This document shows positions 1,689-10,941 of a stretch of 10,941 nt of DNA, piece by piece. Under the pieces are notes generated by a model. It searched no databases, had not been told where the DNA came from, and saw nothing but the letters and a program-made list of their open reading frames with translations. Source of the DNA: a virus (taxonomy: Duplodnaviria > Heunggongvirae > Uroviricota > Caudoviricetes); the IMG/VR virus record IMGVR_UViG_2563366831_000008, one strand, 5' to 3'. The position numbers and the translations under genes are program-made. The stretch's first letter is position 1. Every line of letters starts with the position of its first letter.

Positions 1689-1907
1689 TCACAGTCCCCA
1701 TTGTTTGTTCTTAAGTTCGATCTCCTCCTGGCAACTTGCACAAGTCCGACAACCCTGAACAGCCAGGCGTCTTCGCTCATCTATCGGATCGCCACACTCA
1801 CAACAATGAGTGGCAGATACAGTCTGGTAGTTCAGACGACGCATTTTTATTGCTGTATTGCGCTGTAATTCTTCGATTTCTGATGCTGAATCAATTATGT
1901 CTGCCAT
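1689..1907 (-). CDS. DksA/TraR-family C4-type zinc-finger protein
   Basis: 72-aa ORF with CxxC-N17-CxxC (CCECGDPIDERRRLAVQGCRTCASC), typical of phage TraR-like proteins; weak SD. Confidence 0.8.
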   Translation of the reverse strand: MADIIDSASEIEELQRNTAIKMRRLNYQTVSATHCCECGDPIDERRRLAVQGCRTCASCQEEIELKNKQWGL

Positions 1908-3321: not shown

Positions 3322-4103
3322 GCTGCCACCTTCTGCTCAGTGGCTTTCTGTTTCAGGAATCCAAGAGCTTTCACTGCTTCGGCCTGTGTCAGTTCTGACG
3401 ATGCGCGAATGTCGCGGCGAAATATCTGGGAACAGAGCGGCAATAAGTCGTCATCCCATGTTTTATCCAGGGCGATCAGCAGAGTGTTAATCTCCTGCAT
3501 GGTTTCATCGTTAACCGGAGTGATGTCGCGTTCCGGCTGACGTTCTGCAGTGTATGCGGTATTTTCGACAATGCGCTCGGCTTCATCCTTGTCATAGATA
3601 CCAGCAAATCCGAAGGCGAGACGGGCACACTGAATCATAGCTTTATGCCGTAACATCCGTTTGGGATGCGACTGCCACGGCCCCGTGATTTCTCTGCCTT
3701 CGCGAGTTTTGAATGGTTCGCGGCGGCATTCATCCATCCACTCGGTAACGCAGATCGGATGATTACGGTCCTTGCGGTAAATCCGGCATGTACATGATTC
3801 ATTGTCCTGCTCAAAGTCCATGCCATCAAATTGCTGGTTTTCATTGATGATACGGGACCAGCCATCAACGCCCACCACCGGAACGATGCCGTTCTGCTTG
3901 TCAGGGAAGGCGTAAATTTCTTTCGTCCACGGATTAAGGCCGTACTGGTTGGCGACGATCAACAATGCGATGAACTGCGCATCGCTGGCATCACCTTTAA
4001 ATGCCGTCTGGCGAAGAGTGGTGATCAGTTCCTGTGGGTCGACAGAATCCATGCCGACACGTTCAGCCAGCTTCCCAGCCAGCGTTGCGAGTGCTGTACT
4101 CAT
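3318..4103 (-). CDS. bet: Lambda Bet (Red-beta) single-strand annealing protein
   Basis: 261-aa protein matching lambda Bet ([37 protein letters not shown]...), same length and context. Confidence 0.97.
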
Positions 4104-4405: not shown

Positions 4406-4478
4406 GGCTGAACTCCTGAAATAGCTGTGAAAATATCGCCCGCGAAATGCCGGGCTGATTAGGAAAACAGGAAAGGGG

Positions 4479-4816: not shown

Positions 4817-4835
4817 TAAAACCGCACTCAGGCGG
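4817..4835 (-). terminator. Hairpin / possible attenuator at the ea10 stop codon
   Basis: Minus strand CCGCCTGAGTGCGG followed by TTTTA; the ea10 stop lies in the loop. Lambda has regulated RNA structure upstream of cIII; the function here is uncertain. Confidence 0.3.
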
Positions 4836-5196
4836 CCTTGATAGTCATATCATCTGAATCAAATATTCCTGATGTATCGATATCGGTAATTCTTATTCCT
4901 TCACTACCATCCATTGGAGGCCATCCTTCCTGACCATTTCCATCATCCCAGTCGAACTCACAAACAACACCATATGCATTTAAGTCTTTCGAAATTGCTA
5001 TAAGCAGAGCATGTTGCGCCAGCATGATTAATACAGCATTTAATAAAGAGCCGTGTTTATTGAGTCGGTATTCAGAGTCTGACCAGAAATTATTAATCTG
5101 GTGAAGTTTTTCCTCTGTCATTACGTCATGGTCGATTTCAATTTCTATTGATGCTTTCCAGTCGTAATCAATGATGTATTTTTTGATGTTTGACAT
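4828..5196 (-). CDS. ea10: Ea10-like early protein (122 aa)
   Basis: Size (122 aa) and position (immediately pL-proximal to cIII) equal lambda ea10; assignment is by context and size, as I do not recall the lambda Ea10 sequence. Confidence 0.7.
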   Translation of the reverse strand: MSNIKKYIIDYDWKASIEIEIDHDVMTEEKLHQINNFWSDSEYRLNKHGSLLNAVLIMLAQHALLIAISKDLNAYGVVCEFDWDDGNGQEGWPPMDGSEGIRITDIDTSGIFDSDDMTIKAA

Positions 5197-5361
5197 CTAT
5201 TCATATCCTCATAGATAAAAAATCGCCTTCACACTGGAGGGCAAAGAAGATTTCCAATAATCAGAACAAGTCGGCTCCTGTTTAGTTACGAGCGACATTG
5301 CTCCGTGTATTCACTCGTTGGAATGAATACACAGTGCAGTGTTTATTCTGTTGTTTATGCC

Positions 5362-5387
5362 AAAAATAAAGGCCGACTATGCGGCCT
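5362..5387 (-). terminator. Rho-independent terminator candidate (minus strand)
   Basis: Minus-strand hairpin AGGCCG-catagt-CGGCCT followed by TTTATTTTT, 5 nt downstream of the stop of the 5392..5841 ORF. Confidence 0.55.
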
Positions 5388-5391
5388 GAAA

Positions 5392-5841
5392 TTACTTAAC
5401 CAATGATGCTGCATATTCGATAAGGTAAAGCTTTGGGGCCAGCCAAATTTTTAACCAAGTCATATTGGTTACTACACCAATAATAAAAATCCCCCACAGA
5501 GTCAAAACTCCAACCAATGGCATGATAAGAAGATTAATATCACCTTTGCTATCCCAAACCATTGTCGGCCTGTATTTGGGATTTCCTTTCTCCCATGAAT
5601 ATCCTTCATCACCGATTTTACCTGTCTCAACTCTTTGGCACTGCTTCTTCATAAACCAGAAAACCAGTGGGATTGTTAGAATGGCCATTAATGTTTTAAT
5701 CAGACTGTCAACCATATTCCATAGCAGCAACTGATGAACAACATCAGGAATCTGTGCCTGGCTAAATGAAACAGCCGCGTCTATTCCATTACTGGCTTTT
5801 TGCAGTAGTTCTACGAGAATCTTGTTTGCTTGTTCTTCCAT
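5392..5841 (-). CDS. Predicted inner-membrane protein (149 aa), possible superinfection-exclusion-type accessory protein
   Basis: Strong SD AAGGTGA before the ATG at 5841; at least two long hydrophobic stretches (LMAILTIPLVFWFM; LLIMPLVGVLTLWGIFIIGVV); flanked by terminators; sits where lambda carries ral/sieB. Confidence 0.7.
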   Translation of the reverse strand: MEEQANKILVELLQKASNGIDAAVSFSQAQIPDVVHQLLLWNMVDSLIKTLMAILTIPLVFWFMKKQCQRVETGKIGDEGYSWEKGNPKYRPTMVWDSKGDINLLIMPLVGVLTLWGIFIIGVVTNMTWLKIWLAPKLYLIEYAASLVK

Positions 5842-5882
5842 ATATCACCTTGATTGTAATAAGCATGAAATTATTTACGGAC

Positions 5883-5911
5883 AAAAATAAAGGCCACCAT
5901 CAGGCAGCCTT
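5883..5911 (-). terminator. Rho-independent terminator candidate (minus strand)
   Basis: Minus-strand hairpin GGCTGCC-tgat-GGTGGCC (7 bp including two G-U pairs) followed by TTTATTTTT. Its 5' flank (CAAAAATAAAGGCC) repeats that of the 5362..5387 terminator. Confidence 0.5.
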
Positions 5912-5980
5912 GTAGTTCTGTTTACCAAGTTCTCTGGCAATCATTGTCGTCGTTCGTATTGTCTACACCATTGATTCTTA

Positions 5981-6067
5981 TCAATAGTCGTAGTCATACG
6001 GATAGTCCTGGTATTGTTCCATCACATCCTGAGGATGATCTTCGAACTCTTCAAATTCTTCTTCCAT
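5981..6067 (-). CDS. Candidate micro-ORF encoding a 28-aa highly acidic, Tyr-rich peptide (MEEEFEEFEDHPQDVMEQYQDYPYDYDY)
   Basis: ATG at 6067 preceded by SD GAGGTGA; 12 of 28 residues are D/E and none K/R; lies 58 nt downstream of N, just before a terminator. Purely sequence-based; could be non-coding. Confidence 0.35.
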   Translation of the reverse strand: MEEEFEEFEDHPQDVMEQYQDYPYDYDY

Positions 6068-6125
6068 ATCTCACCTCAAATAAGTGGTTTGCTGCCTAAT
6101 TTCATTTTCTGGCGACCAACACAAG

Positions 6126-6398
6126 TCATCTTGCTGTCAGTTGTTTGGATTTCCGGTAGCCTGCCGCGTAAAGAGCTACGTTTGGAAGACAAGTTGAGCC
6201 TTCATATTTTCTGGTCAGCGTTGTCAGTGTTATTACTTCTGCTCTCATTGCTGGTTTGCGCTTGCATTGCAAGACCACTCGTGAAGGGGTTGGCCTGTGT
6301 AGCTTGTCGGAGCTGATCGCCTTCTGACTTTGCAGATTTGCGCGACGAGCTCTACGGCGAGAAGCTGCGGTGCCTTTAAATTCTGTTTTTCTGGACAT
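6126..6398 (-). CDS. N: N-type transcription antitermination protein (90 aa), of the 933W/H-19B/phi21 type rather than lambda
   Basis: N-terminal arginine-rich motif MSRKTEFKGTAASRRRARRANLQ and C-terminal ...CLPNVALYAAGYRKSKQLTAR, which resembles Stx-phage N proteins as I recall them; SD GGGAGG before the ATG at 6398 (track ORF start at 6482 has no RBS); first gene after pL/nutL. Confidence 0.85.
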   Translation of the reverse strand: MSRKTEFKGTAASRRRARRANLQSQKAISSDKLHRPTPSRVVLQCKRKPAMRAEVITLTTLTRKYEGSTCLPNVALYAAGYRKSKQLTAR

Positions 6399-6496
6399 AG
6401 ATTCCTCCCGAATAAACTTTGGCGATGCAATCTCGAAGCTCCTCCTGAGACGGTTGCTTCGGCATTGCATCCCACAGCTCATGTGGTTGGGTGATC

Positions 6497-6542
6497 TGGC
6501 TTTTCAGCCACGTAGTCGAGAGTTCGACGTTGTTTAAAGAGC
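6497..6542 (-). promoter_or_regulatory. nutL site: boxA (6530..6542) and boxB hairpin (6497..6510)
   Basis: Minus strand reads GCTCTTTAAACAA (boxA-like, cf. CGCTCTTTAACAA) and, 19 nt downstream, TGGCT-GAAA-AGCCA (5-bp stem with GAAA loop), in the N leader between pL and N. Confidence 0.6.
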
Positions 6543-6588
6543 CTGCCAGTCTGTTCCGTTTGGCTTCCAGCGTCCTGCTGACGGTTAA

Positions 6589-6617
6589 ATAGTACGATAT
6601 GTACTTTATTGTGTCAA
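6589..6617 (-). promoter_or_regulatory. pL promoter candidate
   Basis: Minus strand TTGACA (plus 6612-6617), 17-nt spacer, TACTAT (plus 6589-6594); correctly placed upstream of nutL and N. Confidence 0.5.
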
Positions 6618-6673
6618 TACGATTTGCTCTAAAATGGGGTGATTTTTTATAACACTTTGTATTTAATAGTGTT
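6591..6673. promoter_or_regulatory. OL operator region (candidate repressor-binding palindromes)
   Basis: AGTAC-gatat-GTACT (6591-6605) overlaps the pL -10; AACACT-N11-AGTGTT at 6651-6673. A related motif AGTACatattGTAT occurs in OR (8323-8336). Confidence 0.4.
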
Positions 6674-6808
6674 GTTTTTTAGCGTGGGTGTATTGCCTCG
6701 GCGATGTAAGGAGAGATCAGAATTGCGTGGTTTAGTGAGTTGTATCTATTTATTTTTCAATAAATACATTTGGTTATGTGTCTTTAGGTGGGGGCGTGAG
6801 GCAAAGAA

Positions 6809-6830: not shown

Positions 6831-7115
6831 TTAGCTAATGATTTGGAATCCTATATCCTCAAGCGTTGCGTCACCTCTGCATAACGCATGAAAGTGACGA
6901 GCTTTCAGTCCAGCTTGCTTAGCCATGGATTTTATTAAATCTCTGGAGAATGGGGCGTGATGCTTATCAACTGTAACCACCCATTTTCCTTTACTGTTCT
7001 TGAGAACCCACTGTTCGTGAGAGGTTCCTGTTTTAGGTTTCATTTCAAACCCCATTTTCTTAAGTCCCCTGATTACCTCGTCGTATTTCAAAGGAGTAAG
7101 CTTTTTCAAGAACAT
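6831..7115 (-). CDS. HicA-family (YcfA-like) putative mRNA-interferase toxin, 94 aa, with a C-terminal extension of roughly 25 aa
   Basis: Core KYDEVIRGLKKMGFEMKPKTGTSHEQWVLKNSKGKWVVTVDKHHAPFSRDLIKSMAKQAGLK fits the HicA pattern (GxxH motif, basic dsRBD-like fold signature); start is 11 nt after the upstream HicB-like stop. Family call is from motif memory, not a search. Confidence 0.7.
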   Translation of the reverse strand: MFLKKLTPLKYDEVIRGLKKMGFEMKPKTGTSHEQWVLKNSKGKWVVTVDKHHAPFSRDLIKSMAKQAGLKARHFHALCRGDATLEDIGFQIIS

Positions 7116-7126
7116 GTAATGTAACC

Positions 7127-7423
7127 CTAAGCATGAGCATCACAAGGCTCAGCAAAGAGTTTTGCTTCACCTCGTTTTCTGACAAAAACCTGAAATGCAA
7201 TTACCCAATACTTAAGCCACATAGATAAAGGTGCTTTCCGACTTAGTAGTTGTTTTGCATATTCCGGCTCTGATAGCGCTTCAGTGAAAAAATCTTTAAT
7301 CTGCTCATCCAGTTTGTTTACAGCTTCTTTCATAGTATCTGCTTGCGCTGCCAATGACAGGTCTAAACATGCAGCTACGTAAACGCCGTTCTGCTGGTAG
7401 GCCATGCAACGTAAGGTTTTCAT
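7127..7423 (-). CDS. HicB-like (RNase-H-fold antitoxin domain) protein, 98 aa, without a recognisable DNA-binding domain
   Basis: N-terminal GVYVAACLDLSLAAQADTMKEAVNKLDEQI resembles the HicB N-domain signature (beta-strand, then xGxT/EEA helix); strong SD GAGGAGA 6 nt before the ATG at 7423; located upstream of the HicA-like gene. Confidence 0.6.
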   Translation of the reverse strand: MKTLRCMAYQQNGVYVAACLDLSLAAQADTMKEAVNKLDEQIKDFFTEALSEPEYAKQLLSRKAPLSMWLKYWVIAFQVFVRKRGEAKLFAEPCDAHA

Positions 7424-9052: not shown

Positions 9053-9952
9053 ATGACAAACACAGCAAAAATACTCAACTTCGGCAGAGGTAACTTTGCC
9101 GGACAGGAGCGTAATGTGGCAGATCTCGATGATGGTTACGCCAGACTATCAAATATGCTGCTTGAGGCTTATTCGGGCGCAGATCTGACCAAGCGACAGT
9201 TTAAAGTGCTGCTTGCCATTCTGCGTAAAACCTATGGGTGGAATAAACCAATGGACAGAATCACCGATTCTCAACTTAGCGAGATTACAAAGTTACCCGT
9301 CAAACGGTGCAATGAAGCCAAGTTAGAACTCGTCAGAATGAATATTATCAAGCAGCAAGGCGGCATGTTTGGACCAAATAAAAACATCTCAGAATGGTGT
9401 ATCCCTCAAAACGAGGGAAAATCCCCTAAAACGAGGGATAAAACATCCCTCAAATTGGGGGATTGCTATCCCTCAAAACAGGGGGACACAAAAGACACTA
9501 TTACAAAAGAAAAAAGAAAAGATTATTCGTCAGAGAATTCTGGCGAATCCTCTGACCAGCCAGAAAACGACCTTTCTGTGGTGAAACCGGATGCTGCAAT
9601 TCAGAGCGGCAGCAAGTGGGGGACAGCAGAAGACCTGACCGCCGCAGAGTGGATGTTTGACATGGTGAAGACTATCGCACCATCAGCCAGAAAACCGAAT
9701 TTTGCTGGGTGGGCTAACGATATCCGCCTGATGCGTGAACGTGACGGACGTAACCATCGCGACATGTGTGTACTGTTCCGCTGGGCATGCCAGGACAACT
9801 TCTGGTCCGGTAACGTGCTTAGCCCGGCCAAACTCCGCGACAAGTGGACCCAGCTCGAAATCAACCGTAACAAGCAACAGGCAGTCGTGACAGCCAGCAA
9901 ACCAAAACTCGACCTGACAAACACAGACTGGATTTACGGGGTGGATCTATGA
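9053..9952 (+). CDS. O: Lambda O replication initiator protein
   Basis: 299-aa protein matching lambda O (MTNTAKILNFGRGNFAGQERNVADLDDGYARLSNMLLEAYSG...); SD AGGAG upstream; contains the ori iterons. Confidence 0.97.
   Translation: MTNTAKILNFGRGNFAGQERNVADLDDGYARLSNMLLEAYSGADLTKRQFKVLLAILRKTYGWNKPMDRITDSQLSEITKLPVKRCNEAKLELVRMNIIKQQGGMFGPNKNISEWCIPQNEGKSPKTRDKTSLKLGDCYPSKQGDTKDTITKEKRKDYSSENSGESSDQPENDLSVVKPDAAIQSGSKWGTAEDLTAAEWMFDMVKTIAPSARKPNFAGWANDIRLMRERDGRNHRDMCVLFRWACQDNFWSGNVLSPAKLRDKWTQLEINRNKQQAVVTASKPKLDLTNTDWIYGVDL
9401..9530. repeat. Lambda-type replication origin: four ~19-20 bp iterons plus AT-rich region
   Basis: Direct repeats ATCCCTCAAAACGAGGGAAA (9401), ATCCCCTAAAACGAGGGATA (9421), CATCCCTCAAATTGGGGGATT (9444), ATCCCTCAAAACAGGGGGAC (9468), followed by the A-rich tract ACAAAAGAAAAAAGAAAAGATTATT. 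Confidence 0.9.
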
Positions 9953-10614
9953 AAAACATCGCCGCACAGATGGTTGACTTTGACCGTGAGCAGATGCGTC
10001 GGATCGCCAACAACATGCCGGAACAGTACGACGAAAAGCCGCAGGTACAGCAGGTAGCGCAGATCATCAACGGTGTGTTCAGCCAGTTACTGGCAACTTT
10101 CCCGGCGAGTCTGGCTAACCGTGACCAGAACGAACTGAACGAAATCCGTCGCCAGTGGGTTCTGGCTTTTCGGGAAAACGGGATCACCACGATGGAACAG
10201 GTTAACGCAGGAATGCGCGTAGCCCGTCGGCAGAATCGACCATTTCTGCCATCACCCGGGCAGTTTGTTGCATGGTGCCGGGAAGAAGCATCCGTTATCG
10301 CCGGACTGCCAAACGTCAGCGAGCTGGTTGATATGGTTTACGAGTATTGCCGGAAGCGAGGCCTGTATCCGGATGCGGAGTCTTATCCGTGGAAATCAAA
10401 CGCGCACTACTGGCTGGTTACCAACCTGTATCAGAACATGCGGGCCAATGCGCTTACTGATGCGGAATTACGGCGCAAGGCTGCCGATGAACTGACCTGT
10501 ATGACAGCGCGAATTAACCGTGGTGAGACGATACCTGAACCAGTAAAACAACTTCCTGTTATGGGCGGTAGACCTCTAAATCGTGCACAGGCTCTGGCGA
10601 AGATCGCAGAATGA
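9949..10614 (+). CDS. P: Lambda P (DnaB helicase loader), C-terminally truncated by an IS insertion (221 aa versus 233 in lambda)
   Basis: Protein matches lambda P up to ...RAQALAKIAE; the ATG overlaps the O stop as ATGA; the reading frame ends at a TGA supplied by the first bases of the IS terminal repeat (10612-10614). Confidence 0.9.
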   Translation: MKNIAAQMVDFDREQMRRIANNMPEQYDEKPQVQQVAQIINGVFSQLLATFPASLANRDQNELNEIRRQWVLAFRENGITTMEQVNAGMRVARRQNRPFLPSPGQFVAWCREEASVIAGLPNVSELVDMVYEYCRKRGLYPDAESYPWKSNAHYWLVTNLYQNMRANALTDAELRRKAADELTCMTARINRGETIPEPVKQLPVMGGRPLNRAQALAKIAE

Positions 10615-10941
10615 ACCGCCCCGGGTTTCCTGGAGAGTGTTTTATCTGTGAACTCAGGCTGCCAGATCATCGTTTCCGATGGAAGCATAATAAGCTTTTT
10701 CTGCTTCTGCCGGAGGAGTATGGCCCAGCCTTTCCAGCAATCGTCGATTGTTATACCAGTCCACCCACGTGAGTGTGGCCAGTTCCACTTCTGCACGGTT
10801 TTTCCAGCTCTTACGGTGTATTACCTCCGCTTTGTAAAGACCATTGATGCTCTCCGCCATCGCGTTGTCATACGAGTCGCCTGTACTTCCTGTTGATGCC
10901 AGTAATCCGGCTTCCTTAAGCCGCTGTGTGTAGGCCAGCGA
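10612..10941 (-). mobile_element. IS3-family insertion sequence (IS629-like), right end; element continues beyond the window
   Basis: Terminal sequence TGAACCGCCCCGGGTTTCCTGGAGAG begins exactly where similarity to lambda P stops, and resembles the IS629 terminal inverted repeat as I recall it; a transposase 3' end follows on the minus strand. Confidence 0.8.
10654..10941 (-). CDS. IS3-family transposase (OrfB, DDE integrase domain), C-terminal fragment; 5' part lies outside the window
   Basis: ...MAESINGLYKAEVIHRKSWKNRAEVELATLTWVDWYNNRRLLERLGHTPPAEAEKAYYAS is the conserved C-terminal region of IS3-family OrfB; the frame is open to the window edge; stop is 42 nt inside the IS end. Confidence 0.8.
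   Translation of the reverse strand, partial: SLAYTQRLKEAGLLASTGSTGDSYDNAMAESINGLYKAEVIHRKSWKNRAEVELATLTWVDWYNNRRLLERLGHTPPAEAEKAYYASIGNDDLAA

Follow-up and report, generated by a model that had tools for sequence, protein, structure and literature searches.

In phage lambda, the early leftward operon transcribed from the promoter PL carries orf28 (lambdap47), a 28-codon open reading frame (ORF) that the lambda RefSeq entry places at 34271-34357, with a 17-nt overlap with the start of ral, the gene for the restriction alleviation protein Ral. orf28 has been removed along with ral in engineered lambda strains (PMC2327257). Lambda and P22 both have a further gene in this neighborhood, sieB, which occupies the other strand between N and orf28. 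Here we describe the corresponding region of a 10,941-nt stretch of DNA from a tailed phage (IMG/VR record IMGVR_UViG_2563366831_000008; the whole stretch is called the window below), in which the interval between the antiterminator gene N and ea10 contains two ORFs on the minus strand, one coding for a 28-amino-acid (aa) hyper-acidic peptide (5981-6067) and one for a 149-aa predicted membrane protein (5392-5841). We found that the interval is probably a three-piece mosaic of the lambdoid PL accessory region, made up of orf28, a dead ral and an inserted gene for the 149-aa protein. All three components are already present in databases, as lambda orf28, Ral and phrog_3054 (WP_000392425.1), and none represents a new kind of element.

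Both ORFs had been located by a sequence-only reading of the window, which took them for an accessory patch of the early leftward operon standing where lambda carries ral and sieB. The accessory character of the patch between N and ea10 is supported by our comparisons, while its relation to lambda needed revision, as lambda itself has orf28 upstream of ral, and ral was not replaced in the window but is still there as a frameshifted deletion remnant. The proposed cassette holds for one inserted membrane gene and fails for orf28, a resident lambda micro-gene beside the dead ral. The remnant (5900-5997) and a second terminator-like hairpin (5890-5911) had gone unnoticed.

The 28-aa product, MEEEFEEFEDHPQDVMEQYQDYPYDYDY, matched phrog_16060 from end to end (E = 4.6e-18, 28/28 positions) and shares 27 of its 28 residues (96%) with the product of lambda orf28, the single change being E10D. 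These matches identify the ORF, at the level of sequence, as the prophage copy of lambda orf28. The frame begins 58 nt past the N stop codon, with no ORF in the gap, and is preceded by a Shine-Dalgarno site GAGGTGA (6071-6077, minus strand) 3 nt before the ATG, in keeping with the good ribosome binding site right after N that had been described. The peptide composition was likewise as first reported, with Asp or Glu at 12 of 28 positions (43%), five Tyr and no Lys or Arg, to which we add one His.

Immediately downstream, alignment with lambda and Sf6 and two Ral fragments recovered by tblastn delimited a ral pseudogene at 5900-5997 (minus strand), with its ATG at 5997 and a 17-nt overlap with orf28. 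The stretch from the orf28 Shine-Dalgarno site to the terminator corresponds to the lambda orf28-ral segment minus 103 bp of the ral interior, and homology to lambda ral (66 aa), at 92-98%, covers 11 codons at its start, 19 codons at its end and the terminator. The deletion junction lies near 5961/5962, between GGTGT(G/A)GA followed by CAAT and GGG followed by CAAT, which form the imperfect repeats TGG(A/G)CAAT. Because 103 is not a multiple of three, the ral frame stops after 18 codons (MTTTIDKNQWCRQYERRQ and a stop codon), and the last 19 Ral codons are out of frame, ending at 5900. The window has no uninterrupted ORF of about 60-66 aa that spans the Cys-rich Ral center; only the 18-aa product is encoded. 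Unlike lambda ral, the window copy without its central 103 bp and with its frame shifted can give no Ral protein, and on this evidence ral is present but inactivated. Behind it, a hairpin scan identified a terminator-like hairpin and T-run (5882-5911, hairpin 5890-5911, minus strand) homologous to the sequence just after ral in lambda.

The 103-bp deletion was not confined to the window. It was observed in 12 of 130 unique orf28 contexts (about 10%), with an 18-aa product predicted in 11 and a 16-aa product in one, and it is carried at loci L119, L120, L165, L169, L206, L213, L215, L224, L231 and L240 as well as at about 5955-5970 of the window. At least two junction spellings were found, GTGGGCAAT versus GTGGACAAT or GTAGACAAT, with varied neighboring sequence. 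Recurrence of the deletion across backgrounds with at least two junctions suggests a slippage hotspot between the TGG(A/G)CAAT repeats; repeated slippage would fit the distribution, and so would an old allele dispersed through recombination. At 5900-5959 (minus strand; 6531-6590 in the identical prophage L003), the Prokaryotic Genome Annotation Pipeline (PGAP) takes the out-of-frame C-terminal remnant, read from an ATA start, for an intact 'antirestriction Ral family protein' of 19 aa (WP_229996399.1). We regard this as an annotation fault, in which a pseudogene is left unflagged and a 19-aa fragment is named a Ral family protein.

Alignments with lambda and Sf6 placed the third piece as a 521-bp insertion relative to lambda (5361-5881, minus strand) composed of a Shine-Dalgarno site, the 149-aa gene and a terminator. 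The insertion is flanked by a 14-nt direct repeat, GGCCTTTATTTTTG. In lambda, GGCCTTTATTTTTG is joined directly to GCATAAA; in the window, GGCCTTTATTTTTG is followed by TCCGTAAAT, the Shine-Dalgarno site and the gene, and then by a second GGCCTTTATTTTTG joined to GCATAAA. The Shine-Dalgarno site AAGGTGA (5845-5851, minus strand) stands 3 nt before the ATG, and a terminator-like hairpin and T-run follow the gene (5360-5387, hairpin 5370-5387, minus strand), so that the strong ribosome binding site and own terminator attributed to this gene were both found. By its alignments the gene is a self-contained insertion exactly behind the ral terminator, and a terminator-like hairpin flanks it at each end. 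Sf6 is arranged likewise; its homologous distal hairpin is annotated tL2A, and a neighboring boundary sequence is annotated as well. The gene has the moron traits of insertion between elements adjacent in lambda and of an own terminator. A consensus scan found no sigma-70-like promoter of its own upstream, either here or in the homologue of L248, a scan that weak or non-consensus sites could escape. In L248, a podovirus-type prophage in which the context is unrelated, the homologue lies antisense between the terminase and portal genes and is again bracketed by terminator-like hairpins (3965-3981 and 4408-4427, plus strand), so that terminator, gene and terminator seem to move together as one unit.

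Two side observations concern this gene. Nineteen identical nucleotides, AAGGTGATATATGGAAGAA, are common to the initiation regions of the 149-aa gene (5842-5851 and 5833-5841) and of lambda-type orf28 (L005, about 1797-1815, minus strand), and both proteins begin MEE; the shared segment may have served as a recombination linker, or may be left over from cassette assembly. An 89-aa antisense ORF (5465-5734, plus strand) inside the gene appears 'conserved' in 10 loci of other genera; the simplest reading is that it mirrors the conserved coding strand and is not a gene.

In the history that we propose, the orf28-ral module would have been the resident, its ral inactivated by the deletion between the imperfect repeats, and the self-contained cassette would have been inserted behind the ral terminator, 14 nt of which would have been duplicated. 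A consensus scan of 5150-6750 returned the PL-like promoter (TTGACA-17-TACTAT, 6617-6589, minus strand) as the sole site and none between N and ea10, with the limit that a weak internal promoter could escape a consensus-only search. Since no promoter-like site separates N from ea10, transcription of all three pieces presumably starts at PL, and RNA polymerase modified by N would read through both terminators. Read-through of terminators mediated by N is an established lambda mechanism.

To examine the coding status of orf28, we gathered its copies from a Ral-based locus search and two degenerate DNA pattern scans of IMG/VR, which gave 213 copies with adequate flanks (216 in all), representing 38 orf28 alleles and 100 haplotypes of a 207-nt segment. 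The frame was kept throughout these copies and their 130 unique contexts with one premature stop only, and conservation of the micro-ORF across lambdoids was thereby confirmed. Variation within codons 2-23 fell at third codon positions at 22 of 30 variant sites (binomial p = 9e-6). In codons 10-19, the region unconstrained by any search pattern, 11 of 13 variants were at position 3 (binomial p = 2e-4) and 9 of 13 were synonymous, compared with 14% expected (p = 1e-5). Both replacement variants at third positions in this region were Glu to Asp, and both variants at positions 1-2 were singletons; the non-singleton replacements in codons 9-10 were solely exchanges between E and D. Homology of the context ends about 20 nt upstream of the orf28 ATG, with the Shine-Dalgarno site kept. 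Through the third-position bias and the synonymous excess, these comparisons show orf28 to be a genuine protein-coding micro-gene as far as patterns of substitution can. An antisense gene was rejected as the cause of the conservation, the variable sites being second codon positions of the plus-strand ORF at 5944-6099.

Some points weigh against this conclusion. The signal comes from only a few dozen substitutions among near-identical modules, and the p-values ignore phylogeny. Few of the substitutions are independent because the orf28-ral modules are near-identical through recent mosaic exchange, and not all of their similarity is constraint. In lambda, knock-down of orf28 by CRISPR interference gave no plaque defect, and the gene is non-essential (PMC10695390). 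The same work reports a phenotype for ral knock-down on the EcoKI+ hosts MG1655 and C3000.

The association of orf28 with ral was strict. The ral start overlaps orf28 in 130 of 130 unique contexts, with the orf28 stop codon 14 nt inside ral, and orf28 is also found upstream of the diverged ral genes (74-80% Ral identity) of P22, BTP1 and ST-35. P22 combines a 74% identical Ral with a 100% identical orf28; in BTP1 (Ral 79% identical) the peptide is MEEEFEEFDEHPQDVMNQYQEYPYGYDY, and the frame is intact after 9 nucleotide changes; ST-35 orf28 has two replacements. orf28 is missing from a non-lambdoid phage in which ral is served by a promoter of its own. Neither orf28 nor ral was found near the 149-aa homologues of other genera (0 of 22 loci), which rules out that orf28 travels with the membrane gene. 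From its presence with ral in all 130 contexts and its absence at the 22 homologue loci, we assign orf28 to the ral module and not to the membrane gene. Unexplained on the lambda map for decades, orf28 now has a clear coding signature and a strict linkage to ral from lambda to P22.

With low confidence, we infer that orf28 acts with the ral module. The peptide matched no Pfam, NCBIfam or known defense family, and neither it nor the 149-aa protein matched a PADLOC-DB v2 defense model at E < 1. Our tentative first choice, which falls somewhat short of an even chance, is a small trans-acting acidic peptide, which might, for example, partner with Ral or imitate an acidic ligand of the nucleic-acid or SSB-tail-like kind (SSB, single-stranded DNA-binding protein). 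The amino-acid constraint that extends to non-acidic residues and the very strong Shine-Dalgarno site fit such a peptide. The C-terminus consists of acidic residues and then an aromatic last residue. Acidic residues with a C-terminal aromatic residue are the pattern of SSB-type tails. If orf28 does act in trans, the PL operon of lambda would gain a new functional gene. Anti-restriction activity and nucleic-acid mimicry, both raised for these genes by the sequence-only reading, are speculation.

Rather unlikely, yet the alternative that survives best, is that orf28 is a cis-acting leader or coupling ORF for ral translation. Ribosomes on the acidic run MEEEFEEFE would pause or abort depending on the state of the cell, and those reaching the stop codon, which lies 14 nt beyond the AUG of ral, would melt a local hairpin and allow ral initiation. 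Acidic residues in the first 30 codons do pause or destabilize Escherichia coli ribosomes, an effect relieved by EttA and YbiT, and the leader MgtL provides a regulatory precedent for destabilization by an acidic run (PMC11282234, PMC11162784). The 17-nt overlap with the ral start is constant, and the replacements in codons 9-10 that are not singletons keep the charge. In lambda, a predicted 9-bp hairpin, CUAUUGAU-AAAA-AUCAAUGG, covers the orf28 stop codon, which lies in its 5' arm, and ral codons 4-10 (lambda 34258-34283, corresponding to L005 about 1700-1725 and window about 5966-5990, minus strand), and the predicted minimum-free-energy fold of lambda also pairs the orf28 and ral initiation regions. 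However, the z-score of the fold is a mere -2.0, and ral has an AGGA of its own 8 nt before its ATG. The constraint on orf28 extends to H, P, Q, V, M and Y with mostly synonymous changes, which would be needless for a pure coupling ORF. orf28 is also intact in 11 of the 12 ral-deleted contexts, an observation that is not decisive, as these alleles may be young. The trans-acting peptide is the reading that we retain ahead of the leader, and the rest of the probability falls to neither of the two.

The 149-aa protein (5392-5841) matched phrog_3054 over residues 1-149 (E = 4.2e-64) and belongs by profile match and hydropathy to the two-pass family that includes Sf6 gp34. We counted 516 close homologues in Enterobacterales, and a profile search of clusters at 50% identity returned about 2,480 representatives at E <= 1e-3 and 1,111 at E <= 1e-10. 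All 121 sampled members matched phrog_3054, and no Pfam family was consistently matched by them, nor any holin or antiholin Pfam or PHROG family. The 149-aa protein itself had no Pfam or NCBIfam hit, a search of PDB sequences with the family profile gave nothing below E = 0.5, fold and sequence searches of PDB and BFVD with the protein gave nothing informative, and a literature search for the membrane-protein accessions and motif found no mention. Over Pfam, NCBIfam, PADLOC and PDB, no well-characterized family of unrelated function was matched. phrog_3054 is among the larger phage protein families without a Pfam model or known function.

As had been predicted for it, the 149-aa product has the features of a membrane protein, with hydrophobic segments at about residues 43-64 and 104-126 (Kyte-Doolittle windows). 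An AlphaFold2 model (pLDDT, the predicted local distance difference test, 76) places a helix at 2-68 that includes the first transmembrane segment (TM1), a small beta loop, a second segment (TM2) at 106-125 and a C-terminal amphipathic helix. Across the family, the N-terminal ~42 residues (..GIDAAVSFSQAQIPDV..QLL.W) and the C-terminus (WLKIW.APKLYLIEYAASL; motif WLKIW.APKLYLIEYAA) are conserved, with P32 and K137 invariant, and TM1, a loop of 12-60 residues and TM2 are variable. The protein and its family are predicted to be two-pass membrane proteins, or TM hairpins, with conserved ends and a variable core. Lys plus Arg residues number 3.0 per 12 immediately behind TM1 and 0.45 per 12 immediately ahead of it, and because of this excess an N-out, loop-in and C-out topology is predicted. 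With its conserved ends and variable core, the protein may take part in an interaction at the membrane that determines specificity.

The genomic contexts of the family were varied. In several genera a member immediately follows N. At six loci a member abuts Rz/Rz1 at its end or overlaps that end, with two holins and an endolysin ahead of it. Other members neighbor a gene for a glycosyltransferase or a DNA methyltransferase, lie antisense between the terminase and portal genes with terminators on either flank, or stand in arrays of small early ORFs. One member lies in a 344-kb T4-like phage contig, probably of a virulent phage. The 149-aa gene is a mobile accessory gene of temperate prophages and one T4-like phage, and the occurrence of members in both, the latter probably virulent, suggests a role in lytic development. 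We place this role, with low confidence, at the cytoplasmic membrane.

T4 Imm and HK97 gp15 are small inner-membrane proteins that block DNA entry, and the gp15 gene is a moron. A comparable block to incoming phage DNA, Imm-like or Sie-like and with the variable core as its specificity, is possible for the 149-aa protein, although we consider it less than evenly probable from the analysis made here. Several observations weigh against it. The exclusion idea rests only on topology, position and analogy, with no sequence or fold match in PADLOC, Pfam, NCBIfam or PDB; a role in lysis is indicated just as much by the close coupling to spanin genes seen in several genera; and the member in the T4-like contig argues against a purely lysogenic-conversion function. 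The apparent exclusivity with sieB is also weak. Among 126 unique contexts, sieB was beside orf28 in 33, the 149-aa gene in 15, both in 0 and neither in 78 (Fisher p = 0.011, relatedness ignored); these contexts are phylogenetically non-independent. SieB itself was rejected as the identity of the 149-aa protein, a match that had been proposed for checking: there was no Pfam hit at E < 1, and hhalign gave a probability of 0.1-0.2% against lambda and P22 SieB.

Next after an exclusion block, and unlikely in our estimate, is a lysis-timing factor, such as an antiholin-like or a spanin- or holin-associated membrane protein. Homologues in Pseudocitrobacter, Buttiauxella, Dryocola, Proteus and Providencia either start within 0-12 nt of the Rz/Rz1 end or overlap it, at a site preceded directly by two holins and an endolysin, and in Pantoea and one other locus the homologue is downstream of an endolysin. 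The member in the T4-like contig would also suit a lytic function, and the N-out/C-out hairpin, as deduced from Lys and Arg counts, resembles small lysis regulators. In the lambdoid phages of E. coli, Salmonella and Shigella, however, the gene is in the early PL operon by N, far from the lysis genes, and none of the 121 members consistently matched a holin or antiholin family. The region after the lysis genes is, moreover, a general hotspot of moron insertion in lambdoid genomes. An exclusion function is the reading that we tentatively put first for the 149-aa protein. The joint proposal, in which orf28 is a trans effector (an obligatory partner of Ral against type I restriction enzymes, or an SSB-tail mimic diverting a host DNA-metabolism or defense protein) and phrog_3054 is possibly a widespread exclusion or immunity family with a swappable core as its specificity, is improbable as a whole.

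Far less credible than any of these is that the 28-codon frame is an untranslated chance ORF in a conserved non-coding ral leader: 35 ORFs of at least 20 aa occur in the surrounding 2 kb, so that a 28-codon ORF alone carries no weight, and lambda orf28 is dispensable, yet a perfect Shine-Dalgarno site at optimal spacing, the near-complete preservation of the frame across 38 alleles, the third-position and synonymous excess and the survival of the BTP1 frame all argue against it.

The window is a lambda-like prophage. In order of increasing coordinate, its minus strand has int, genes of the xis region, exo, bet, gam, kil, cIII, ea10, the interval described here, N, the PL-like promoter, hicA/hicB and cI; beyond these come cro, cII, O and P on the plus strand and then, back on the minus strand, an IS3-family fragment. 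The left edge of the interval is ea10 (DUF2528; 4828-5196, minus strand; Pfam E = 3.8e-46), which is 97.5% identical to lambda ea10, and on the other side N (6126-6398, minus strand; Pfam N_peptide E = 3.6e-32; RefSeq coordinates via the identical prophage L003) marks the PL operon. Prophages of at least nine complete E. coli genomes, O157:H7 493/89 and LSU61 among them, are 100% identical to 5370-6125, and O55:H7 CB9615 is 99.9% identical over the same segment. In the one locus that was looked at, integration was beside a tRNA-Arg gene, next to fimZ.

Several side observations were made in the flanking regions. A HicA toxin and HicB-like (DUF1902) antitoxin pair lies between PL and cI (6831-7423, minus strand), the position occupied by rexA/rexB in lambda. 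A PGAP 'frameshifted hypothetical protein' at 6376-6598 (7007-7229 in L003, minus strand) overlaps the N start and the PL-N leader and is probably a spurious call over the nutL region. P (9949-10614, plus strand) has 221 aa versus 233 aa in the otherwise identical L003 and is followed by an IS3-family transposase fragment (10654-10860, minus strand). The exact P/IS3 junction was found in one piece in no complete E. coli genome of the collection, and for this reason the prophage is probably disrupted and defective.

Compared with described systems, orf28 is closest to its lambda counterpart (NP_040623.1; phrog_16060), with which it shares length, Shine-Dalgarno site, the 17-nt ral overlap and position in the PL operon. 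Unlike in lambda, it follows N directly, because sieB is absent, and its partner ral carries a deletion. MgtL-type leaders (PMC11282234, PMC11162784) are similarly short ORFs with an acidic cluster in the first 10 codons just upstream of a regulated gene, but the constraint on orf28 spans the whole peptide. The 149-aa gene is like sieB a membrane-associated accessory gene of the N-ral neighborhood, and differs in standing after ral on the PL strand. With T4 Imm and HK97 gp15 its product shares a likeness of kind only, all being small phage inner-membrane proteins. Useful by-products of these comparisons are the orf28 coding signature with its ral linkage, a ral allele prone to deletion, and the large size of phrog_3054 with its mosaic anatomy. 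That anatomy is best seen against the Sf6 gene 34 protein, also with two TM segments, which occupies the same slot, after the ral terminator and before a tL2A-like terminator. Its first 40 residues are identical to those of the 149-aa protein and its last 21 nearly so, whereas the TM1-loop-TM2 center is unrelated, giving 50% identity overall for proteins of 140 and 149 aa. Matching ends around an unrelated center indicate that alleles of this family swap a central core between conserved ends.

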